From IMG/VR virus record IMGVR_UViG_2939147180_000007: 42,021 nt of DNA. One strand, given 5' to 3'. Each line of letters opens with the position of its first letter. Position 1 is the stretch's first letter. The position numbers and the translations under genes were made by a program. Below the pieces are notes generated by a model. The model saw only the letters and a list, made by a program, of their open reading frames with translations, was not told the DNA's origin and did not search any database. Positions 3,001-40,603 of this stretch are shown here, one piece after another. Source of the stretch: a virus. Taxonomy: Duplodnaviria > Heunggongvirae > Uroviricota > Caudoviricetes.

Positions 3001-3777
3001 ACTGCCGGCGCTCGAGGCTGCGCTCGTTTCTGATGATTTTGCCGCCACTTTTGAAGCCGACGCATCCCGGGCTGAGGTGGCAGCTTCTGACGCTTTCGTG
3101 GTCGCGGTGGATGCAGAAGTGGCCGCAGATTTTTGTGATGCTGCGGCATTCGTTTCTGACGTTTTCGCTGCACCGGCACTGGTGGCTGCCGCGCTTTTTG
3201 AAGACTCTGCAGCGGCAGCACTTTTTGATGCTTCAGTGGCCTTTGCTGATGCCGTTCCTGCGCTGGAAGACGCTGACTGAGCCGACGAAGCGGCCTGTCC
3301 GGCTGACGTGCTGGCTGCACGTGCTGAGCCTGCAGCATCAGTCGCACGGGTTGCCGCCTCACGGGCTGATGTGCTGGCATCACTGGCTGACTTCTTCGCG
3401 GCTGCTGTGTTCTGCGCCACTGCGGACGCGTTACGCGCCACCTCTTCCACCATCAGTTCAAAGCGGCGCAGTGCCTCCGGACGGACATCATCCTCCGTCA
3501 TGGCACCGAGAAAATCATTCAGCGTACCCGGTTGTGAGTCTTCATACACGGTGATGGTCCCGGCATGCGATGGCGGGAAGCCTTCCACCAACAGAATAAC
3601 GCTGTACTGACCGTACTCAACGTCCATGCTGTAACGCCCGGCTTCATCCGGGTTTTCTGAGGCCACTGTGTTCACCACCACCGTGGTGCTGTTGCGCCTG
3701 GCCTTTAGCTGAATGGTGCAGTTTTGTATCGGCTTACCTGCGCCATCTTTCAGTACACCTGAAATCCGTACTGCCAT
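1..3777 (-). CDS. stf: side tail fiber protein with Ala/Ser-rich repeat region and C-terminal intramolecular-chaperone-like domain
   Basis: 1258-aa ORF; N-terminus MAVRISGVLKDG...GFPPSHAGTITVYEDSQPGTLNDFL matches lambdoid Stf from memory; C-terminus ...SDRRLKENIEIIDNATDAIRKINGYTYTLKENGAHCAGVIAQEVEEAIP resembles self-cleaving endosialidase-type chaperone domains; stop codon at window bases 1-3. Confidence 0.9.
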   Translation of the reverse strand: MAVRISGVLKDGAGKPIQNCTIQLKARRNSTTVVVNTVASENPDEAGRYSMDVEYGQYSVILLVEGFPPSHAGTITVYEDSQPGTLNDFLGAMTEDDVRPEALRRFELMVEEVARNASAVAQNTAAAKKSASDASTSAREAATRATDAAGSARAASTSAGQAASSAQSASSSAGTASAKATEASKSAAAAESSKSAAATSAGAAKTSETNAAASQKSAATSASTATTKASEAATSARDASASKVAAKSSETSAASSAGSAASSATAAGNSAKAAKTSETNADNSAQAAADSQTASANSATAAKKSETNAKNSESAAKVSETNAKASENKAKEYLDKVGRLVSPMTQYDWPVVTASESLYIKIAKLSDPGTSRSHVTLMVTNAGNYGSPYGNIDFIEISARGLPSSLTADNVSRHLSIRRLGSTGLTDNNQMRYGLVKGDGFIEVWAFQGAFINDAKVAVLAQTTLSTELYIPDGFVKQTAAPSGYIEGNVVRIYDQVNKPTKADLGLSNAMLTGAFGLGGSGIATNGKMSDVEILKALRDKGGHFWRGDKPTGSTATIYSHGSGIFSRCGDTWSAINIDYSTAKIKIYAGNDARLNNGTFSVNELYGSANKPSKSDVGLGNVTNDAQVKKTGDTMTGDLTIKKDTPSVFLRADSGVTALRFYTGDNTERGIIYAGPNTDSLGEVRIRAKTAGGTSGGDLVVRHDGRVEVRDLTVAYKIKSRTIEIANTDTDSSATTLSIYGVQHTPLVLTRSGSSENVSIGFKLDNVNPKYLGIDTNGDLAFGESPDQKQNSKLITQAKLDKGLTIGGQLAFKGTTAFSAAATFSAGIAGAIEPENIGGQKVDLNNLTIRSDAGAVKYYSCPSSGGGANITNKPDGVTGNFLLRVESTRKVSASDYANMQTLISNDTKRIYVRFVVNGNWTAWSQVVVSGWNQDITVRSLTTSSPVKSGGGRIDVLGSTSDYSKMDCFVRGFDSTGNSLAWALGSSAGVSKMLSLKNFFSGAEILLNGNDGTVQLKTGAVNGATAQALTINRNEVNSTVDLTLTKQSGTGNRFVLQNSGNAELPFSVRVWGSSTRQNVFEVGTSAAYLFYAQKTTDGQNLTVNGSVNCTTLNQSSDRRLKENIEIIDNATDAIRKINGYTYTLKENGAHCAGVIAQEVEEAIPEAVGSFIHYGEELQGPTVDGNELREETRYLNVDYAAVTGLLVQVARETDDRVTALEEENTTLRQNLATAGTRISTLENQVSELVALVRQLTGSEH

Positions 3778-26162: not shown

Positions 26163-26378
26163 TTACTCTCCCCGTGCCGCCTTACGACGGTCCTCTCTGA
26201 TTTTGAAATACAGGTTAGTCAGATATGTCAGCAGCCCAAACAGCAGACTCCCCAGCACGCCTATTGCCGCCCACTGAGACGGGGAAACCCTGTCCAGCAA
26301 CTGCAGGAACCAGTAGCCCGTTCCCACCGCTGACGTGGTGTATGACACACCTGTTGTGATTTTTTCCATCTGGTCCAT
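26163..26378 (-). CDS. class II holin (phage 21 S-like pinholin), dual-start motif
   Basis: track ORF 26163..26483; start at [10 protein letters not shown] (Met1/Met4 dual start); two TM segments; C-terminus [19 protein letters not shown]. Confidence 0.85.
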
Positions 26379-26685
26379 ACCCCGTCTCCCGTTATCCGGA
26401 AGCTGACAACAATAAAAAAGCCACCAGTTAACTACTGATGGCTCTGATAACTCATGCAAGCGTCTCAGACGATCCACTGACACTACCGGTGAGTTTAACG
26501 ATACCTTCCATTTGACTGGCTCACTTTTTATGATGATGCCGGTGTATTTATCTCCAGCACCAGACTTTCTATCTCAACGCCATACGTTGCATTTTTGGTA
26601 ATATCCGTCAGCGTCAGTGCATTTAGTCCCACTGCCAGACTGTCTTTTATGGCCTGGAATGCCGGGCCAGTACGATGACGTAGTA

Positions 26686-27494: not shown

Positions 27495-27691
27495 TCAATA
27501 TAAACAGCCCCTCCGGAGAGGGGCTGGAGAGTGGCGCTATGTGCCATTGCATGGTGCCGGGTGCCTCCCGGTGAATTCAGTACCAGCACCTGAATCCGCG
27601 ATTATCCCATATACCTACTCGCTGATTACCCCTCCGCACAGGGGGATTCACCATGCGAAATTTTTTAACAAACTTCCCGCCGGCCAGACAA
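27495..27691 (-). ncRNA. candidate structured RNA module, copy 1 (promoter-like element, conserved helices, terminator)
   Basis: minus strand: TTGTCT-N17-TTAAAAAAT, then TCGCATGGTGAATCCCCCT...CTGAATTCACCGGGAGGCACCCGGCACCATGC, then palindromic hairpin AGCCCCTC-CGGA-GAGGGGCT and a U-rich tract. Confidence 0.35.
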
Positions 27692-27960
27692 TAATCGCCA
27701 GCCTGAATTATGAGCAACGTGGCATTTTACGGGAAAACTGTTTTCTGCAGTAAAAAGGCCCGCCGGAGCGAGCCTGGAAGGATAGCGGTCATGTGATGCC
27801 GGTTTCCCGGTAACTCAGCATCGGTATCTGAGTCAACGTTTTCTCTACTGGGTCATTTCCGATACGTTCCGCCTTCCGGCAGACTTTCATCACGTCAGAA
27901 AATATAGCACCCTGAGTAACAGGACAGTACTCAGAATTCAGGAAACTGTGACACATCCTG

Positions 27961-28160
27961 CACAGAAAAGCCCCTCCGGAGAGGGGCTGAAGTATAGCCT
28001 AATTTCTGTCTGTCGCATGGTGCCAGGGGCCTCCCGGTAAATTCAGCCTGTCTACTGAATTTGCATGTTCTCTGGATCATACACTTTGCCAGATGCCCCG
28101 CCGCTGAGGGGGATTCACCATGCGATGTAATTTTTAACAAATTCTCCGGCAGCCAGACAA
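27961..28160 (-). ncRNA. candidate structured RNA module, copy 2 (diverged duplicate of copy 1)
   Basis: same conserved blocks and hairpin-terminator as copy 1, different loop sequences, one G-C to G-U stem change. Confidence 0.35.
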
Positions 28161-28503: not shown

Positions 28504-28579
28504 TGGTGGCCCTTGCTGGATTTGAACCAGCGACCTGGCGATTATGAGTCGCTCGCTCTCACCACTGAGCTAAAGGGCC
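28504..28579 (-). tRNA. tRNA with anticodon CAU (ileX-like, probably tRNA-Ile2; Met not excluded)
   Basis: 76 nt GGCCCTTTAGCTCAGTGGTGAGAGCGAGCGACTCATAATCGCCAGGTCGCTGGTTCAAATCCAGCAAGGGCCACCA; full cloverleaf; near-identical to E. coli ileX from memory. Confidence 0.85.
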
Positions 28580-28722: not shown

Positions 28723-29544
28723 TTACCTAGTTACCTTTTTTAACTGCCGCTCAGCCCATGCTTCTTCAATATCAAACCGGGTCACCAGCGCATCATAGAA
28801 TTTCTTAACTGTTTTTTCCCATGACGCGCGTGTTATCTGGTTTGTCACCTCGCATATAGCATTAAATGTCTCCGTTGATGGTAGTCTTTCATAGCCACGA
28901 CCACCACAACGCTGGCAGTCTCTGATAACAGGCATACCACGTTTTACCGACTCTTCACGATGAATGGCGACACCACGCCCACGGCAATCCTTACAGGCGG
29001 TGGAAACCTCACCCTTTCCGCCACACTCCGGACAGGCAACTTTTACCACCTCCCTGACTTTTTTCCATTCTTCCCAGTAAGACGAATACACACCTTTCGT
29101 ACACTTTGCCCATACCGGCGGCTTACCATCCGGATACTGGACCTTGTTTGTAAAAACTACGCTTTCAATAAATTTTTCCCCATAGCAACAAGGGCACTGC
29201 TTTTTACTCGCTGCGCTGCGGGCATAATCCTCAAAAGCGTACGAAGCCATAATGCGCATCACTAACGGTTTTATTTCTGCCGGAAGTTTTCTCAACGCCG
29301 CAACACGATCGCACCGACTGAGTGCATAATCTGCCAGTAATTCTGTTGCCCGCGCCCTGTCATTCATACTGATGCCCATTTTCCCCAGGAACGCAGAAAA
29401 CCCCATCTCAGCCCGATTCTGTGTCATGCCCTGCGCGGCCATCACATCAGTGATACTCAGCGCATCTTTTGACGTTGAGGCCGATGCATCGGTCAGGCCA
29501 GGGGATTTTGGGGAGTAGTATTTCGGTAAATCTTCCAGTTTCAT
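28723..29544 (-). CDS. Q: late gene antiterminator Q (phage 21/82-type)
   Basis: 273-aa ORF with Cys-rich zinc-binding region (CPCC...CPECGGKGEVSTACKDCRGRG...CQRCGGRG); upstream of pR'/tR' and lysis genes; 4-nt overlap with rusA. Confidence 0.8.
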   Translation of the reverse strand: MKLEDLPKYYSPKSPGLTDASASTSKDALSITDVMAAQGMTQNRAEMGFSAFLGKMGISMNDRARATELLADYALSRCDRVAALRKLPAEIKPLVMRIMASYAFEDYARSAASKKQCPCCYGEKFIESVVFTNKVQYPDGKPPVWAKCTKGVYSSYWEEWKKVREVVKVACPECGGKGEVSTACKDCRGRGVAIHREESVKRGMPVIRDCQRCGGRGYERLPSTETFNAICEVTNQITRASWEKTVKKFYDALVTRFDIEEAWAERQLKKVTR

Positions 29545-31427: not shown

Positions 31428-31583
31428 TTACTCCTCAGGTTCGTAAGCTGTGAAGACAGCGACCTCCGTCTGGCCGGTTCGGATTCGTACCTCGCAGAGG
31501 TCTTTCCTCGTTACCAGTGCCGTCACAATGACGGTTAAACAGATGACGATCAGGGCGATTAACATCGCCTTTTGCTGCTTCAT
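31428..31583 (-). CDS. hok: Hok/Gef family type I toxin
   Basis: 51 aa MKQQKAMLIALIVICLTVIVTALVTRKDLCEVRIRTGQTEVAVFTAYEPEE, near-identical to HokD/RelF from memory; in-frame upstream extension to 31640 occupies the mok position. Confidence 0.88.
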   Translation of the reverse strand: MKQQKAMLIALIVICLTVIVTALVTRKDLCEVRIRTGQTEVAVFTAYEPEE

Positions 31584-31842
31584 AGCCTGCTTCTCCTTGC
31601 CTTTCGGCACGTAAGAGGCTAACCTAGATTTGCCGTTCATAGATTGAGCCTCAGATTAATGTTAAGCGTCTTGCAGGACGCGTAATGTTAACTGGGGCTT
31701 TTCTCTATCTGCCTTTTGGTGTTCATGCCTGAGACAGATAGCCTCAAGCACCCGCAGTCATTCTACTTAACTAAGATTTCCCCGCAAACCGTTTTTGTCC
31801 GGCACAGTAAATATCCAACTAAACCAATGGCGTTCGCTGTAT

Positions 31843-36874: not shown

Positions 36875-37093
36875 ATGCAGAAACGAGAACCCGTCATCAT
36901 CGCGCCAGACTATACCGATGATGAACTTTATGAGTGGATGCGCCAGAAAATTAATGCAGCGCAGGATTTGAAATGGGCCAATGAAGCCAGGGCTAAGCAG
37001 GCTGAAAATCTGTCCGCTCTGGAGCAGGATATCACCAGGCTGGAAAAAGCAGCGGCATTAAGCATTGCCAGAATGATTACATACCCGCGTTAA
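36875..37093 (+). CDS. YdfC-like protein
   Basis: 72-aa ORF with SD AAGGAG; same length and position (upstream of DicF) as Qin ydfC. Confidence 0.6.
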   Translation: MQKREPVIIAPDYTDDELYEWMRQKINAAQDLKWANEARAKQAENLSALEQDITRLEKAAALSIARMITYPR

Positions 37094-37434
37094 TAGCTAA
37101 CCAACGAAGCTAAGGTTGGTAATTAAGGAGTTCTCCACGGGTGAGGTGGAGTGCGTGCGCCGGACACGGGTGAGCATCCGGCACTGACAGTTTACTGAAA
37201 GGATATTTCCCTGAAAAGTCAGACCATAACGCGAAAGCGCACGGCGAGGTAGCTGGTTCATAGATAGCCTGTCGTTAAATTTTCGTCGACCGTGCGCTTC
37301 CGGTTGTGGCAATCCGCGAAATGGCGCGGCGGTAAGTATGGCGGGGTTATTCCTTCCCCCGTTGAGGACACCGGGTTGTCAGGTTGACCATACGCTTAAG
37401 TGACAACCCCGCTGCAACGCCCTCTGTTATCAAT

Positions 37435-37492
37435 TTTCTGGTGACATTTGGCGGTATCAGTTTTACTCCGTGACTGCTCTGCCGCCCTTTTT
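37435..37492 (+). ncRNA. dicF: DicF small RNA (ftsZ-targeting antisense sRNA)
   Basis: TTTCTGGTGACATTTGGCGGTATCAGTTTTACTCCGTGACTGCTCTGCCGCCCTTTTT matches DicF from memory; about 170 nt upstream of dicB. Confidence 0.7.
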
Positions 37493-37661
37493 AAAGTGAA
37501 TTTTGTGATGCGGTGAATGCGGCTAAGCGCACGCGGAACAGTTAAAACCAAAAACAGTGTTATGGGTGGATTCTCTGTATCCGGCGTTAATTGTTAACTG
37601 GTTAACGTCACCTGGAGGCACCAGGCACCGCATCACAAAACTCATTGTTGAGGGCGCGATA

Positions 37662-37850
37662 ATGAAAACGTTATTACCAAACGTTAATACGTCTGAAGGT
37701 TGTTTTGAAATTGGTGTCACTATCAGTAATCCTGTATTTACTGAAGAGGCCATTAACAAAAGAAAACACGAACGGGAGTTATTAAATAAAGTATGCATTG
37801 TTTCAATGCTGGCCCGTTTACGTCTGATGCCAAAAGGATGTGCACAATGA
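37662..37850 (+). CDS. dicB: cell division inhibitor DicB
   Basis: track ORF 37557..37850; start at MKTLLPNVNTSEGCFEIGVTISNPVFTEEAINKRKHERELLNKVCIVSMLARLRLMPKGCAQ (62 aa), near-identical to K-12 DicB from memory. Confidence 0.8.
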   Translation: MKTLLPNVNTSEGCFEIGVTISNPVFTEEAINKRKHERELLNKVCIVSMLARLRLMPKGCAQ

Positions 37851-38131: not shown

Positions 38132-40603
38132 ATGAGTAAAGTTTTTATTTGCGCCGCCATTCCGGGCGAACAGGCAATAAAGGAAGAAGGTGCCGTCGCT
38201 GTAGCCACTGCCATTGAAGCCGGTGATGAACGTCGCGCCCGCGCAAAATTTCACTGGCAATTCCTGGAACATTATCCGGCTGCTCAGGACTGCGCTTATA
38301 AATTTATTGTCTGCGAGGATAAACCTGGCATACCCCGCCCTGCCCTCGATTCATGGGATGCTGAATATATGCAGGAAAACCGCTGGGATGAGGAGTCTGC
38401 TTCTTTTGTCCCGGTTGAGACTGAATCCGATCCGATGAACGTCACTTTTGACAAGCTGGCCCCTGAAGTACAGAACGCTGTCATGGTTAAGTTCGACACA
38501 TGTGAAAACATCACCGTTGATATGGTTATTAGCGCACAGGAATTGTTGCAGGAAGACATGGCAACATTCGACGGACATATCGTTGAAGCGTTGATGAAAA
38601 TGCCAGAAGTTAACGCCATGTATCCGGAGCTTAAGTTGCACGCCATTGGGTGGGTTAAGCATAAATGTATTCCTGGTGCTAAATGGCCCGAAATTCAGGC
38701 AGAGATGCGCATCTGGAAAAAACGTCGCGAAGGTGAACGCAAGGAAACCGGAAAATACACGTCTGTTGTTGATCTCGCCCGCGCCAGAGCCAATCAACAG
38801 TACACTGAAAATTCAACAGGAAAAATCAGCCCGGTCATTGCTGCCATCCATCGCGAATACAAGCAGACATGGAAAACACTGGATGACGAACTGGCCTACG
38901 CTCTCTGGCCTGGTGATGTGGATGCCGGAAACATTGATGGCAGCATCCATCGCTGGGCAAAAAATGAAGTTATCGACAACGACCGCGAAGACTGGAAGCG
39001 TATCTCGGCATCAATGCGCAAACAGCCTGATGCCCTTCGCTACGACCGCCAGACTATTTTTGGCCTTGTCCGTGAGCGTCCGATCGACATTCACAAAGAT
39101 CCCATAGCACTGAACAAATATATCTGCGAATACCTGACGACAAAGGGCGTGTTTGAGAATGAAGAAACAGACCTGGGCACTGTTGATGTTCTCCAGTCAT
39201 CAGAAACACAAACTGATGCAGTGGAAACTGAGGTATCTGATATCCCAAAAAATGAAACCGCGCCGGAAGCTGAACCATCTGTAGAGCGTGAGGGGCCGTT
39301 CTATTTCCTCTTCGCAGATAAGGACGGAGAAAAATACGGTCGCGCAAACAAACTTTCTGGTCTGGATAAGGCACTGGCTGCTGGCGCCACTGAAATCACA
39401 AAAGAAGAATATTTTGCCCGAAAAAATGGCACATACACGGGCTTACCGCAAAATGTAGATACCGCTGAAGATTCAGAACAACCAGAGCCGGTAAAAGTTA
39501 CCGCTGACGAAGTAAACAAAATTATGCAGGCAGCCAATATCAGCCAGCCTGACGCCGATAAGTTGCTTGCTGCCTCTCGCGGAGAATTTGTTGCAGGGAT
39601 TAGCGACCCGAATGATCCGAAATGGGTTAAGGGGATCCAGACCCGCGATTCTGTAAACCAGAACCAGCATGAATCGGAACGGAACTACCAAAAAGCGGAA
39701 CAAAACAGCCCAAATGCGTTACAAAACGAGCCAGAAACGAAACAGCCTGAACCAGTGGCGCAACAGGAAGTGGAAAAAGTCTGCACCGCCTGCGGTCAGA
39801 CCGGCGGCGGCAACTGCCCTGATTGTGGCGCGGTGATGGGCGACGCAACATACCAGGAAACATTCGATGAAGAGTATCAGGTTGAAGTTCAGGAAGATGA
39901 TCCGGAGGAAATGGAAGGCGCTGAACATCCACACAAGGAGAATACTGGCGGCAATCAGCATCACGATAGCGATAATGAAACTGGCGAGACGGCAGATCAC
40001 TCAATTAAGGTGAACGGTCATCAAGAAATCACATCCACCAGCAGGACGTGTGACCATCTAATGATCGACCTTGAAACCATGGGAAAAAATCCTGATGCCC
40101 CAATCATCTCAATAGGTGCAATATTTTTCGATCCGCAAACCGGAGATATGGGACCGGAATTTAGTAAGACTATCGATCTGGAAACTGCTGGCGGAGTCAT
40201 TGATCGAGACACCATTAAATGGTGGCTTAAGCAATCACGCGAAGCGCAATCTGCCATTATGACCGATGAAATCCCGTTAGATGATGCACTGTTACAATTG
40301 CGGGAATTTATCGACGAAAACTCCGGTGAATTTTTTGTTCAGGTCTGGGGAAATGGAGCCAACTTCGACAACACGATTTTGCGCCGTTCATACGAACGGC
40401 AGGGGATCCCCTGCCCGTGGCGTTACTACAACGATCGCGATGTACGCACAATCGTTGAGCTGGGGAAAGCCATAGACTTCGATGCCAGAACGGCTATTCC
40501 ATTCGAAGGTGAGCGCCATAATGCACTTGATGACGCCCGTTACCAGGCAAAATACGTTTCAGTTATCTGGCAAAAACTGATCCCGAGTCAGGCTGATTTT
40601 TAA
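38132..40603 (+). CDS. YdfE-like protein with Cys4 zinc finger and C-terminal DnaQ-like (DEDDh) 3'-5' exonuclease domain
   Basis: 823-aa ORF; CTACGQTGGGNCPDCG; exonuclease motifs MIDLETMG, WGNGANFDNTIL, HNALDDARYQAKY; position between dicB/ydfD and xis. Confidence 0.8.
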   Translation: MSKVFICAAIPGEQAIKEEGAVAVATAIEAGDERRARAKFHWQFLEHYPAAQDCAYKFIVCEDKPGIPRPALDSWDAEYMQENRWDEESASFVPVETESDPMNVTFDKLAPEVQNAVMVKFDTCENITVDMVISAQELLQEDMATFDGHIVEALMKMPEVNAMYPELKLHAIGWVKHKCIPGAKWPEIQAEMRIWKKRREGERKETGKYTSVVDLARARANQQYTENSTGKISPVIAAIHREYKQTWKTLDDELAYALWPGDVDAGNIDGSIHRWAKNEVIDNDREDWKRISASMRKQPDALRYDRQTIFGLVRERPIDIHKDPIALNKYICEYLTTKGVFENEETDLGTVDVLQSSETQTDAVETEVSDIPKNETAPEAEPSVEREGPFYFLFADKDGEKYGRANKLSGLDKALAAGATEITKEEYFARKNGTYTGLPQNVDTAEDSEQPEPVKVTADEVNKIMQAANISQPDADKLLAASRGEFVAGISDPNDPKWVKGIQTRDSVNQNQHESERNYQKAEQNSPNALQNEPETKQPEPVAQQEVEKVCTACGQTGGGNCPDCGAVMGDATYQETFDEEYQVEVQEDDPEEMEGAEHPHKENTGGNQHHDSDNETGETADHSIKVNGHQEITSTSRTCDHLMIDLETMGKNPDAPIISIGAIFFDPQTGDMGPEFSKTIDLETAGGVIDRDTIKWWLKQSREAQSAIMTDEIPLDDALLQLREFIDENSGEFFVQVWGNGANFDNTILRRSYERQGIPCPWRYYNDRDVRTIVELGKAIDFDARTAIPFEGERHNALDDARYQAKYVSVIWQKLIPSQADF

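Follow-up and report, generated by a model that had tools for sequence, protein, structure and literature searches.

A predicted pseudoknotted RNA domain related to STnc100 between dicF and dicB, and its likely role as an RNase III-cleavable module

The dicBF locus is among the oldest studied small RNA (sRNA) loci, and the prophage proteins DicB and KilR are textbook cases of FtsZ inhibition. The early mRNA sites of T7 and the N-leader, cIII and sib sites of lambda are RNase III intercistronic processing sites of phage operons. In K-12, the 53-nt form of DicF receives its 5' end from RNase E and its 3' end from the terminator, and RNase III makes both the 5' end of a 190-nt species, which depends on this enzyme (Ragunathan 2023), and an alternative 3' end that gives a 72-nt form (Faubladier 1990, as told in reviews). 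The published accounts of DicF biogenesis (Faubladier 1990; Balasubramanian 2016; Ragunathan 2023) concern the same locus as the one studied here and describe a processing site and no conserved structured RNA between dicF and dicB; the primary papers of 1990 and 1994 may draw the stem. RNase III processing 3' of DicF is already published for K-12, and what is added here is a conserved pseudoknotted domain. The relatives of this domain, STnc100 and PasD, have been described as abundant, Hfq-binding trans-acting sRNAs of unknown function.

The dicF-dicB spacer and its basal helix

The window, that is, the whole stretch of 42,021 nt that we analysed, contains a ydfC-dicF-dicB locus 97.5% identical to that of K-12 Qin, and alignment with K-12 thus bears out the Qin-type spacer recognised in the initial annotation. 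The features to which we refer are the following, P1 denoting a helix unless the phage is named.

36875-37093, + strand: ydfC-like CDS, 72 aa, from the list of open reading frames; same position as ydfC in the K-12 annotation
37224-37309, + strand: long interrupted hairpin upstream of DicF, from folding, with the inverted repeat 37232-37244 / 37290-37302 (I2)
37435-37487, + strand: DicF sRNA, 53 nt, counterpart of the annotated K-12 ncRNA dicF
37495-37515, + strand: 5' strand of helix P1, perfect part 37501-37515; GGUG at 37512-37515 is family-invariant
37516-37518, + strand: junction AAU
37519-37534, + strand: hairpin P2, GCGGC-UAAGC-GC-A-CGC, bulged, with a conserved UNNGC loop
37539-37545, + strand: S1, CAGUUAA, 5' strand of the pseudoknot, complementary to 37594-37600
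37546-37582, + strand: variable region, poorly conserved both in sequence and in length, with one hairpin or more particular to the lineage
37583-37609, + strand: hairpin P4, GGCGUUAAU / GUUAACGUC, whose loop contains S2
37594-37600, + strand: S2, UUAACUG, 3' strand of the pseudoknot, in the P4 loop
37611-37625, + strand: hairpin P5, CCUGG-AGGCA-CCAGG, directly adjoining the 3' strand of P1
37626-37646, + strand: 3' strand of helix P1, perfect part 37626-37640; CACC at 37626-37629 is family-invariant
37662-37850, + strand: dicB CDS, 62 aa, from the list of open reading frames and the RefSeq annotation of homologs

The ydfC-like CDS is the final gene ahead of an untranslated spacer of 568 nt, in which neither K-12 nor nearly all of the 3,517 records with a full-length match carry any CDS annotation, as expected from the earlier description of this gap as non-coding. 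At the far end of the spacer the dicB Shine-Dalgarno sequence (SD) GAGGG lies at 37650-37654 on the + strand and the ATG at 37662-37664; the product matches Pfam DicB (PF05358, E = 5e-40). DicF itself, which the same annotation had listed as a DicF-like sRNA with its terminator, was recovered by the Rfam scan (RF00039, 37436-37487, + strand, 77 bits against a gathering score of 48, model positions 1-52 of 52), and the U-tract at 37488-37492 follows it directly, so that hairpin and U-tract make up a Rho-independent terminator. The detection of a processed RNA of about 55 nt, offered there as a test of refutation, bears on DicF alone, whose presence was never in doubt.

Downstream of this terminator the left arm TTTTGTGATGCGGTG (exactly 37501-37515) and the right arm CACCGCATCACAAAA (exactly 37626-37640) are exactly complementary and separated by 110 nt, and the perfect 15-bp inverted repeat that had been noticed there is hence correct in both coordinates and pairing; the distance to the dicB start, estimated at about 20 nt, is 21 nt when counted from the end of the right arm to the ATG. 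In a scan of the whole window for inverted repeats with a 12-nt exact seed and arms at most 300 nt apart, this pair was the sole return, and by a rough estimate about 0.01 perfect 15-bp repeats with arms within 200 nt would be expected by chance in 42 kb. With its flanks (37495-37515 / 37626-37646) the helix pairs at 20 of 21 positions, one G.U included; the single mismatch is A37500/C37641, and position 37641 is T in K-12 and in most Qin-type copies, where the helix is uninterrupted (21/21). Compared with dinucleotide shuffles, the 265-nt RNA from DicF to dicB has a folding z of -4.35, and its minimum-free-energy structure pairs the two arms.

The inverted repeat is the basal, closing helix P1 of a structured RNA domain (37495-37646) that lies between the DicF terminator and the dicB ribosome-binding site and is transcribed within the dicBF operon. 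We found no internal promoter at the domain in the window, in line with the absence of an internal promoter from the dicBF operon (Ragunathan 2023); the distance from the domain to the dicA/dicC immunity region, the site of dicBp in K-12, is about 1.5 kb. What separates the arms, 110 nt taken earlier for a loop, is in fact the best-conserved part of the spacer and forms a covarying, pseudoknotted RNA.

A five-helix fold related to STnc100

The domain, of about 150 nt, adopts a five-helix fold made up of P1, P2, P4, P5 and a pseudoknot in which S1 pairs with S2 in the P4 loop (H-type), and P5 stacks against P1. Judged by sequence comparison, all of these helices covary across more than 260 copies in prophages of Enterobacterales. 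In the 130 distinct copies 82.8% of the cells are paired, against 65.4% after shuffling and 35-48% with slid partners, and double changes occur at 32 of the 34 pairs. P2 is paired in 99.1% of cases (double changes at 4/5 pairs), P4 in 84.1% (9/9 pairs) and P5 in 99.4%, its middle pair being G-C in 113 and U-A in 13 of the 130 copies; an alignment that was not fitted to the structure still gives 98.5% for P2 and 100% for P5. Since loop lengths differ in a column-wise alignment, the pseudoknot was scored per sequence, each S1 being compared with its own and with permuted partners: the mean pairing was 5.18 nt with the own partner and 3.16 +/- 0.09 nt with permuted ones, none of 1000 permutations reached the observed value, and 52 distinct S1 sequences are represented. 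A column-wise count on the MAFFT alignment, in which these loop lengths differ, gave 50-62% pairing, and in the model-fitted alignment the S2 columns are gapped. P1 ends in invariant GGUG/CACC and the P5 loop AGGCA is invariant, but the loci were gathered by a pattern that needs GGTGAAT and GGAGGCACCNGGCACC, which builds part of the invariance of these motifs into the sample; our own covariance model R1 recovered copies with compensated deviations, such as AGUG/CACU in locus L014. The interior blocks are invariant from Qin through Rac to P1-like plasmids, and DicF varies or is absent.

The Rfam family closest to the domain is STnc100 (RF02076), which matches 37499-37639 with 38.8 bits (E = 6.5e-7) over positions 21-154 of a model of 206. 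This score falls short of the gathering score of 47 bits, and the domain is absent from the scan at gathering thresholds. The 3' third of the model is missing: the match ends at position 154, the STnc100 3' domain with its Rho-independent terminator (model positions ~155-206) has no counterpart here, and no + strand terminator follows the element. Under R1 the element scores 98.2 bits, and the window's two canonical STnc100 copies score 90.7 and 75.5 bits. With STnc100, PasD1 and PasD2 the element shares GGUGAAU, the P2 hairpin, P4 and the order CACC-NGG-AGGCA-CCN-GG-CACC, and the multi-helix core, with GGUGAAU and CACCNGGAGGCACCNGGCACC closing on P1, is the STnc100 one; all are prophage-borne and limited to Enterobacterales. 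Unlike STnc100, which is found in the late region downstream of Q and near tRNA or lysis genes (the canonical copies of the window have a Q-like gene with tRNA-Met on one side and the holin on the other), the element sits in the early (PL-type) dicBF operon between an sRNA terminator and an ORF; it has a compensated P2 sequence (GCGGC/GC.CGC) and a P1 lengthened to about 20 bp, and lacks 3' domain and terminator. From these comparisons we assign the domain to the STnc100-class fold, as a putative terminator-less relative of STnc100.

The domain belongs to a leader subtype, in which the element lacks its own terminator and an ORF follows directly. Of the 42 leader-type copies, 1 has a terminator in the 110 nt downstream, whereas 88 of the 165 canonical copies have one; an ORF starts within 80 nt in 25 of the 42, with start codons at 32-41 nt after CACC. 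The ORFs behind it are dicB in Qin, kilR in Rac (after the sRNA KilS) and terB/tciA in phages P1 and P7, Rha/Ash and unknowns among further early genes, and with this diversity we rejected a specificity of the element for division inhibitors. At the Rfam gathering score only 1 of 18 leader-type loci is called as STnc100, and the subfamily defined here is thus missed at the curated thresholds.

The closest parallel is the Rac prophage of K-12, in which KilS is followed, 8 nt beyond its 3' end, by the element (80.8 bits with R1) and, 25 nt on, by kilR. The layout of KilS/kilR (Bar et al. 2021) is that of DicF/dicB, an Hfq-associated sRNA, the domain and the gene of an FtsZ inhibitor, and the KilS terminator is homologous to that of DicF. 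The sequences 5' of the terminators differ, however, the Rac P1 has a bulged A, and KilR is unrelated to DicB. The KilS paper (Bar et al. 2021) mentions neither DicF nor a downstream structure.

P1 is usually 6-10 bp long in the family and reaches about 20 bp in Qin- and Rac-type prophages. A P1 that extends over 17-18 bp is restricted to Qin-type, Lelliottia and Scandinavium copies and shows block-wise compensatory changes; the positions of the seven distinct long-P1 variants comprise in total 104 Watson-Crick pairs, 10 G.U and 3 A.C. A substrate of RNase III spans about two turns of mostly uninterrupted double-stranded RNA, that is, about 20 bp or more, and the P1 of the window has this length.

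Proposed RNase III processing and competing explanations

The proposal in the initial annotation that the long duplex is an RNase III element agrees with the published K-12 data on this enzyme and with the 72-nt DicF, as far as the latter is described in reviews. In secondary descriptions of Faubladier (1990), which fix the cut to within several nucleotides, the 3' end of the 72-nt form projects to about 37506, in the left arm of P1 and at the centre of the 21-bp helix. In addition, site 1649470 in dicF-dicB, from the RNA-seq comparison of delta-rnc with wild type (Gordon 2017, Table S1, PMC5371410; 0/0 wild-type reads, 26 delta-rnc reads, flagged known), maps to 37523, within the element; it is a low-resolution, low-count coverage-ratio peak of 26 reads from a very permissive list, and falls 8 nt inside P1, in hairpin P2 and not in P1 itself. 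On the 5' side, the interrupted hairpin at 37224-37309 is probably, from its modelled fold, the RNase III site that gives the 5' end of the 190-nt precursor, because 190 nt counted back from the DicF 3' end lead to about 37298-37303, within the 3' strand of this hairpin.

We consider it most likely, with moderate confidence, that the domain is an RNase III-cleavable intercistronic module which separates DicF from the dicB mRNA. In the proposed mechanism, transcripts that end at the DicF terminator would give the 53-nt DicF, and read-through transcripts would carry the entire domain. A cut by RNase III near the middle of P1 would generate the 72-nt DicF, detach the compact core and shorten the leader of the dicB mRNA to about 25 nt, so that the sRNA and the toxic message would no longer share one fate. 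Here the fold, its covariation, the family relationship, the distribution and the context are our observations, and the RNase III dependence and the 72-nt species come from literature on the K-12 locus, in part secondary; we infer where exactly the two strands are cut, that the core is released, and any influence on dicB expression, whichever its direction.

If the stem alone were the functional unit and the 110 nt an incidental loop, cleavage or melting of a plain hairpin would determine whether the ribosome can reach its binding site on dicB. A long duplex that ends 21 nt before the ATG would suit this explanation, as would the published processing 3' of DicF, and in the minimum-free-energy fold of the window variant the SD pairs with the terminator tail. 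In the commoner K-12 variant (GAGGA), however, a C.A mismatch weakens this pairing, and the partition-function accessibilities of both the window and the K-12 variants predict a paired SD before as well as after cleavage, only the AUG becoming more accessible; the translational control of dicB that had been suggested for the duplex thus finds no support in the folding. Moreover, the interior is more conserved than the arms, and the covarying pseudoknotted fold recurs in the more than 260 copies, most of them with a P1 of 6-10 bp. We regard the plain hairpin as improbable. A palindrome acting at the DNA level, to bind a protein or as an end used in recombination or transposition, has in its favour a perfect 15-bp inverted repeat in a mobile element, but its probability is practically negligible: pairing on the + strand is kept through G.U (10, against 3 A.C), compensatory double changes occur in P1 and in all the internal helices including the pseudoknot, and the arms are 110 bp apart with no repeats or mobile-element features annotated there.

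Given that P1 is too short for RNase III in most members of the family, cleavage cannot be the general function of the core, and the same shortness in most leader copies speaks for a cis-acting leader. Such a leader would stay on the ORF and stabilise the 5' end, enhance translation or offer a standby site, or sense a ligand or protein, and RNase III cleavage in Qin and Rac would be a secondary off-switch. The leader-type copies have no terminators and stand at the narrow start-codon spacing before diverse early genes, and their intricate conserved fold resembles a riboswitch aptamer. On the other hand, the canonical members with the same fold end in terminators, are not followed by an ORF and build up as Hfq-bound sRNAs; an E-value scan of 37090-37720 against Rfam returned only DicF, STnc100 and one noise match, with no riboswitch or cis-regulatory leader family among them, and no ligand or protein partner is indicated. 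We hold both the leader function and the off-switch as possible, but tentatively. Another candidate is a trans-acting, Hfq-dependent RNA of the STnc100/PasD type, produced by RNase III excision and not from a promoter and terminator of its own. The fold is shared with the abundant, Hfq-bound STnc100 and PasD, the neighbours DicF and KilS are Hfq sRNAs, and cuts on both strands of P1 would free a compact RNA of about 125-130 nt with a stub of about 9 bp. But the STnc100 3' part is absent, including the terminator that Hfq-dependent sRNAs normally need, and K-12 annotates no RNA between dicF and dicB despite extensive sRNA mapping. The zero wild-type reads at 1649470 are also weak evidence that an excised core does not accumulate stably, but the operon is for the most part repressed. 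An sRNA of this kind appears to us unlikely.

A further candidate was a put-like processive antiterminator or anti-Rho element of phages without N protein, whose nascent RNA would modify RNA polymerase or block the loading of Rho. Like the put RNAs of HK022, a lambdoid phage without N, the element is a cis-encoded structured RNA of an early operon; the early (PL-type) operons of Qin- and Rac-type phages have no recognisable N gene, and the complex conserved fold lies in a 568-nt untranslated stretch otherwise open to Rho. However, putL and putR are RNAs of about 70 nt with two adjacent stem-loops and no closing helix, located just downstream of early promoters and upstream of the terminators that they suppress, whereas the element, of about 150 nt with five helices, closing stem and pseudoknot, has no similarity to them in sequence or structure and lies downstream of the DicF terminator. 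In over half of the canonical copies a terminator follows at once, and the RNAs that accumulate from canonical members are terminated sRNAs. A search of the HK022 genome with R1 and filters off gave nothing (best match 7.4 bits, E = 2.1). On architecture and on this search the put-like explanation, to which we give very little probability, was rejected.

Implications for related phage operons

A broader and more speculative proposal is that the STnc100-class pseudoknot could be a functional RNA module in its own right, used by temperate phages of enterobacteria to bind some conserved partner in the host, be it a ribonuclease, Hfq or ProQ, the ribosome, RNA polymerase or a small ligand. Equally speculatively, it might be used in two formats, as a terminated stand-alone RNA of the late region, often in tandem arrays, and as an embedded leader before the host-takeover genes dicB, kilR and terB/tciA. 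No firmer is the suggestion that the RNase III-length stem of Qin and Rac might allow host or phage to release or inactivate the module. If this were true, the classic dicBF and kilR loci would hold a third, unrecognised functional RNA. If both toxin genes follow the same pseudoknotted domain, the 'long untranslated region' of these operons is not a mere spacer; the same domain is common to the ban operon of phages P1 and P7 and to the abundant STnc100/PasD sRNAs. The domain also offers a concrete structural account of the published 72-nt DicF and links DicF and KilS as homologous modules. By itself it reveals no new mechanism.

The element resembles the T7 and lambda sites in that a helix of about 20 bp lies between units of a polycistronic phage transcript and, for P1 by our proposal, is cut by the host RNase III; in T7 and lambda the cuts change how stable the adjacent RNAs are or how they are translated. 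The T7 and lambda sites are simple hairpins, often with internal loops, whereas here the helix closes a conserved five-helix pseudoknotted domain, whose fold is widespread without a stem of RNase III length.

Two candidate connections were discarded. Analogy with the C4 antisense RNA (c4-icd) of phage P1 was rejected, since the copy of phages P1 and P7 is in the ban operon and not in immI, and the E-value scan of the spacer gave no C4 match. Site 1418510 of Gordon (2017) was rejected as a cleavage of the Rac P1, as it lies 8 nt upstream of KilS (kilR starts at 1418229, NC_000913.3). The slot that the element occupies in Rac, just upstream of kil, is the one where lambda has cIII.

The inverted repeat ahead of dicB

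The initial annotation had placed a DicF sRNA and a perfect 15-bp inverted repeat, its arms 110 bp apart, in the spacer ahead of dicB, and both are present as claimed.

Features of the dicF-dicB spacer (window coordinates)
37436-37487, +, DicF (RF00039; Rfam, 77 bits over the full model)
37501-37515, +, left arm of helix P1, TTTTGTGATGCGGTG, exact (sequence, inverted-repeat scan)
37519-37534, +, helix P2 (family architecture)
37539-37545, +, pseudoknot strand S1 (family architecture)
37583-37609, +, helix P4, containing pseudoknot strand S2 at 37594-37600 (family architecture)
37611-37625, +, helix P5 (family architecture)
37626-37640, +, right arm of helix P1, CACCGCATCACAAAA, exact reverse complement of the left arm (sequence, inverted-repeat scan)

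The right arm ends 21 nt before the dicB ATG (37662), with the dicB SD GAGGG at 37650-37654, and in a scan of the whole window (12-nt seed, arms up to 300 nt apart) this arm pair was the sole match. Pairing extends past the lone A37500/C37641 mismatch out to 37495/37646, with 20 of 21 positions paired; position 37641 is T in K-12 and most relatives, where the P1 helix runs without interruption. Folding of the DicF-to-dicB RNA predicts paired arms (z = -4.35). The 566-nt region aligns with MG1655 Qin of K-12 at 97.5% identity and with one E. coli chromosome at 100%, and has full-length matches in 3,515 of 5,426 complete E. coli genomes.

No feature is annotated in the dicF-dicB interval of the K-12 reference, and no promoter-like site was found on the + strand of the spacer, in agreement with Ragunathan 2023. 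The dicB frame stays open 5' to a GTG at 37557, within the RNA domain (37557-37850, +); the stretch of this frame upstream of the ATG, which overlaps P4, P5 and P1, probably goes untranslated. The spacer is also matched in two phages whose hosts are unrelated to E. coli, Aeromonas phage AP1 (MT713136.1, 249971-250131; 98.8% identity) and Actinobacillus phage vB_Apl-pPE4 (86.3%); these matches suggest assembly contamination or chimeric records and not a true distribution.

A conserved pseudoknotted fold

The arms pair as proposed, but the conserved fold lying between them had been overlooked. When divergent Qin-type prophages, Rac and a P1-like plasmid are aligned over the spacer, DicF is variable or absent and the inter-arm blocks GGTGAATGCGGCTAAGCGCACGCGGAACAGTTAAAA and CCGGCGTTAATTGTTAACTGGTTAACGTCACCTGGAGGCACCAGGCACC are essentially invariant. 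A permissive Rfam scan matches 37499-37639 to the STnc100 core (RF02076, model 21-154 of 206) with 38.8 bits and E = 6.5e-7, under the 47-bit gathering threshold. In this STnc100-class fold the two arms of the repeat form the helix that closes the structure.

A degenerate pattern linking two signature motifs collected at least 120 DNA stretches in species-representative genomes and at least 120 in viral contigs, and among the matches listed most belong to Enterobacterales, including Kosakonia, Pantoea, Erwinia, Rahnella, Klebsiella and Citrobacter. In 53 non-redundant copies the order of parts is P1-GGUG, AAU, P2, a short linker, S1, variable hairpin(s), P4, one nucleotide, P5 and CACC-P1, in which P2 comprises 5 bp, a bulge and a UNNGC loop, P5 reads CCNGG-AGGCA-CCNGG, and S2, which lies in the P4 loop, is the reverse complement of S1. 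Invariance of the signature motifs is partly by construction, since the collecting pattern fixes both; nonetheless our covariance model, R1, recovered deviating copies with compensated changes.

R1 detected the fold 138 times across 94 sources and 125 times among 100 viral loci. Over 130 distinct copies the share of paired cells was 82.8%, whereas shuffled controls gave 65.4% and slid partners 35-48%; both sides had changed in 32 of 34 pairs. By helix, pairing reached 99.1% for P2, 84.1% for P4 (with double changes at 9 of 9 pairs) and 99.4% for P5, and an unfitted MAFFT alignment already pairs P2 at 98.5% and P5 at 100%. Because R1 is built on P1, P2, P4 and P5 only and contains no S1:S2, the latter pairing could be tested without model bias. 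The seed copies of R1 had been picked for detectable S1:S2 and P4, but the test covered all hits of the first search. These gave 119 distinct linker and loop combinations, in which the P4 loop matched its own post-P2 strand over a mean of 5.18 nt, compared with 3.16 +/- 0.09 nt for permuted partners (0/1000). S1 takes 52 distinct sequences, and the pseudoknot takes up about 72% of the loop nucleotides; the RF02076 structure line in the cmscan output contains no pairing of the S1:S2 type.

An invariant GC is found in both the P2 loop (UNNGC; window 37524-37528) and the P5 loop (AGGCA), and a short CGC or GC immediately 5' of P4 (window 37581-37585) recurs in alignments family-wide; these elements could make tertiary contacts.

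Leader and canonical copies

Copies of the window's type, with P2 as GCGGC..GC.CGC, usually run into an ORF: a terminator follows within 110 nt in 1 of 42 and an ORF within 80 nt in 25 of 42, the start codon typically 32-41 nt past CACC. The ORFs are diverse (DicB, KilR, TerB/TciA, a Rha/Ash regulator, proteins without Pfam match). Canonical STnc100-type copies have P2 as CCCCC..GG.GGG, and 88 of 165 end in a terminator. The present prophage holds two canonical copies besides the dicF-dicB element, so that the fold occurs in it three times and in both formats; the canonical pair lies in the late region, between the Q-like gene (28723-29544)/tRNA-Met and the holin gene (26163-26483).

Further copies and neighbouring features
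Window 27496-27684 and 27960-28153, -, tandem canonical STnc100 copies (132.5 and 138 bits)
Window 28504-28579, -, tRNA-Met (CAU), following the Q-like antiterminator gene
K-12 Rac, NC_000913.3 1418397-1418255, -, element (R1, 80.8 bits)
K-12 Rac, NC_000913.3 1418502-1418405, -, sRNA KilS (K-12 annotation)
Phage P1, NC_005856.1 2492-2629, element (68.8-90.4 bits across P1, P7 and D6)
P7, 2492-2625, element, full copy
D6, 1492-1630, element, full copy

The Rac element starts 8 nt past the 3' end of KilS, an Hfq-associated, northern-verified sRNA from the kilR 5' UTR (Bar 2021), and stops 25 nt ahead of the kilR start. KilS occupies in Rac the place of DicF in Qin and resembles it in a homologous terminator stem and the P1 strand that follows. 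The two look like homologous modules differing in their 5' (seed) parts, a homology that the KilS paper (Bar 2021) does not mention. Thus, with the position of the Rac element, Qin and Rac share one module: an sRNA with its terminator, the domain, and an FtsZ inhibitor.

The ban operon of P1, P7 and D6, which is under C1 control, carries the element after tRNA genes and immediately 5' of tciA/terB; in phage P1 the element shares its transcription unit with an annotated 'dicF-like region', which precedes it. BLAST saw only a 28-nt remnant in phage P1, where R1 finds a full copy. An STnc100-class domain is common to the dicB, kilR and P1/P7 tciA leaders, and standard annotation misses it: STnc100 is called at the Rfam curated threshold in only 1 of 18 leader-type loci. 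The papers treating STnc100/PasD or dicBF regulation make no mention of the dicF-dicB element. The new point is the identity of the repeat: it is the closing stem of an STnc100-class domain that is conserved and pseudoknotted and lacks a terminator. The 1990/1994 Bouche-lab papers may already show the stem and the homology between Qin and Rac.

STnc100-class tandem arrays of up to seven copies in about 1 kb were also seen, on a Pantoea sp. App145 plasmid (L054, 942-1996) and at loci L041, L050, L075, L084 and L213. In Shigella flexneri CP182556.1 a leader-type copy (3013-3155) is directly followed by isrK (3236-3312, 61.5 bits), C4 antisense RNA (3337-3424, 75.7 bits) and a Rha/Ash-type ORF, three consecutive structured RNAs ahead of an antirepressor-like gene.

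RNase III processing and possible roles of the domain

Neither DicF nor its processing by RNase III is new. The 53-nt DicF has its 5' end made by RNase E and its 3' end by the terminator, the 5' end of a 190-nt precursor is made by RNase III (Ragunathan 2023), and, in the accounts that PMC5069750 and PMC9438474 give of Faubladier 1990, an alternative 72-nt DicF arises by RNase III processing of the full-length transcript. Counted from 37435, 72 nt end at 37506, the centre of the 21-bp P1 helix. A symmetric RNase III dimer is expected to cut a two-turn helix at its centre. A point 190 nt upstream of the DicF 3' end falls at about 37298-37303, within another long hairpin (37224-37309) and on its 3' strand; two RNase III-type helices therefore flank DicF.

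For the dicF-dicB spacer, Gordon 2017 (PMC5371410, Table S1; delta-rnc/WT RNA-seq) lists NC_000913.3 1649470, marked as a site already known, with 0 and 0 reads in wild type and 26 in delta-rnc. By reference comparison this corresponds to position 37523 of the window, within the element, 8 nt past the P1 5' strand. The list is permissive and the coverage-ratio peak has low resolution, so the entry supports RNase III dependence of the stretch but pinpoints no cut. A second site of that study, 1418510, lies 8 nt upstream of KilS, outside the Rac helix. The initial interpretation is partly supported: the 72-nt end and the delta-rnc peak bear out its RNase III part, which in substance was already known.

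AAGCGCACG is present twice, in the upstream hairpin (37235-37244) and in P2 (37525-37534), so CGUGCGCUU (37291-37299) could pair with either copy, including a long-range 9-bp pairing bracketing DicF. Either the hairpin may descend from a P2-like sequence that has since decayed, or the resemblance may be coincidental.

In most copies P1 reaches just 2-6 bp past GGUG/CACC. The extension is 17-18 bp in the dicB leaders of Qin type and in related loci from Lelliottia and Scandinavium; Rac-type kilR leaders have 6 bp, then a bulged A, then some 9 bp more. The long helix is a lineage-specific addition. Its variants differ by block-wise compensatory changes (e.g. GTGAATTTTGTGATGC/GCATCACAAAATTCAT vs GCAGGTTTTAAGGTGT/ACACCTTAAAGCCTGC), and the totals over seven distinct variants, 104 Watson-Crick and 10 G.U against 3 A.C and 2 other, favour selection on the + strand RNA rather than on a DNA palindrome.

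The best supported mechanism is that the domain folds in read-through transcripts and RNase III cuts within the lengthened P1, which would yield the 72-nt DicF, detach the core and leave dicB mRNA with a short leader. Fold, covariation and context were computed here, and RNase III dependence and the DicF species sizes come from the literature; the 3'-strand cut, core release and any effect on dicB are inferred. Modelled cleavage raises the unpaired probability of the AUG from 0.13-0.29 to 0.43-0.98, with the SD predicted as paired before and after. Cleavage could open the dicB start codon; equally, it could remove a 5' structure that gives protection, leaving a monophosphorylated end open to attack by RNase E, and the cleavage model does not predict the direction of the effect.

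RNase III cannot account for conservation of the core, since hundreds of copies have a short P1. The domain might instead be a cis-acting leader, as stabiliser, enhancer or sensor, or an excised trans-acting RNA. A role as antiterminator or anti-Rho element is disfavoured, as the HK022 test and the terminators behind canonical copies both speak against it.

Elsewhere in the prophage, a sok antitoxin RNA (RF01794, 112 bits; 31578-31753, -) implies a hok/sok-type toxin-antitoxin locus. An 823-aa ORF (38132-40603, +) with a C-terminal DEDD-type 3'-5' exonuclease signature, called 'exonuclease' in homologous prophages, is intact in the window and IS2-truncated in K-12 Qin.
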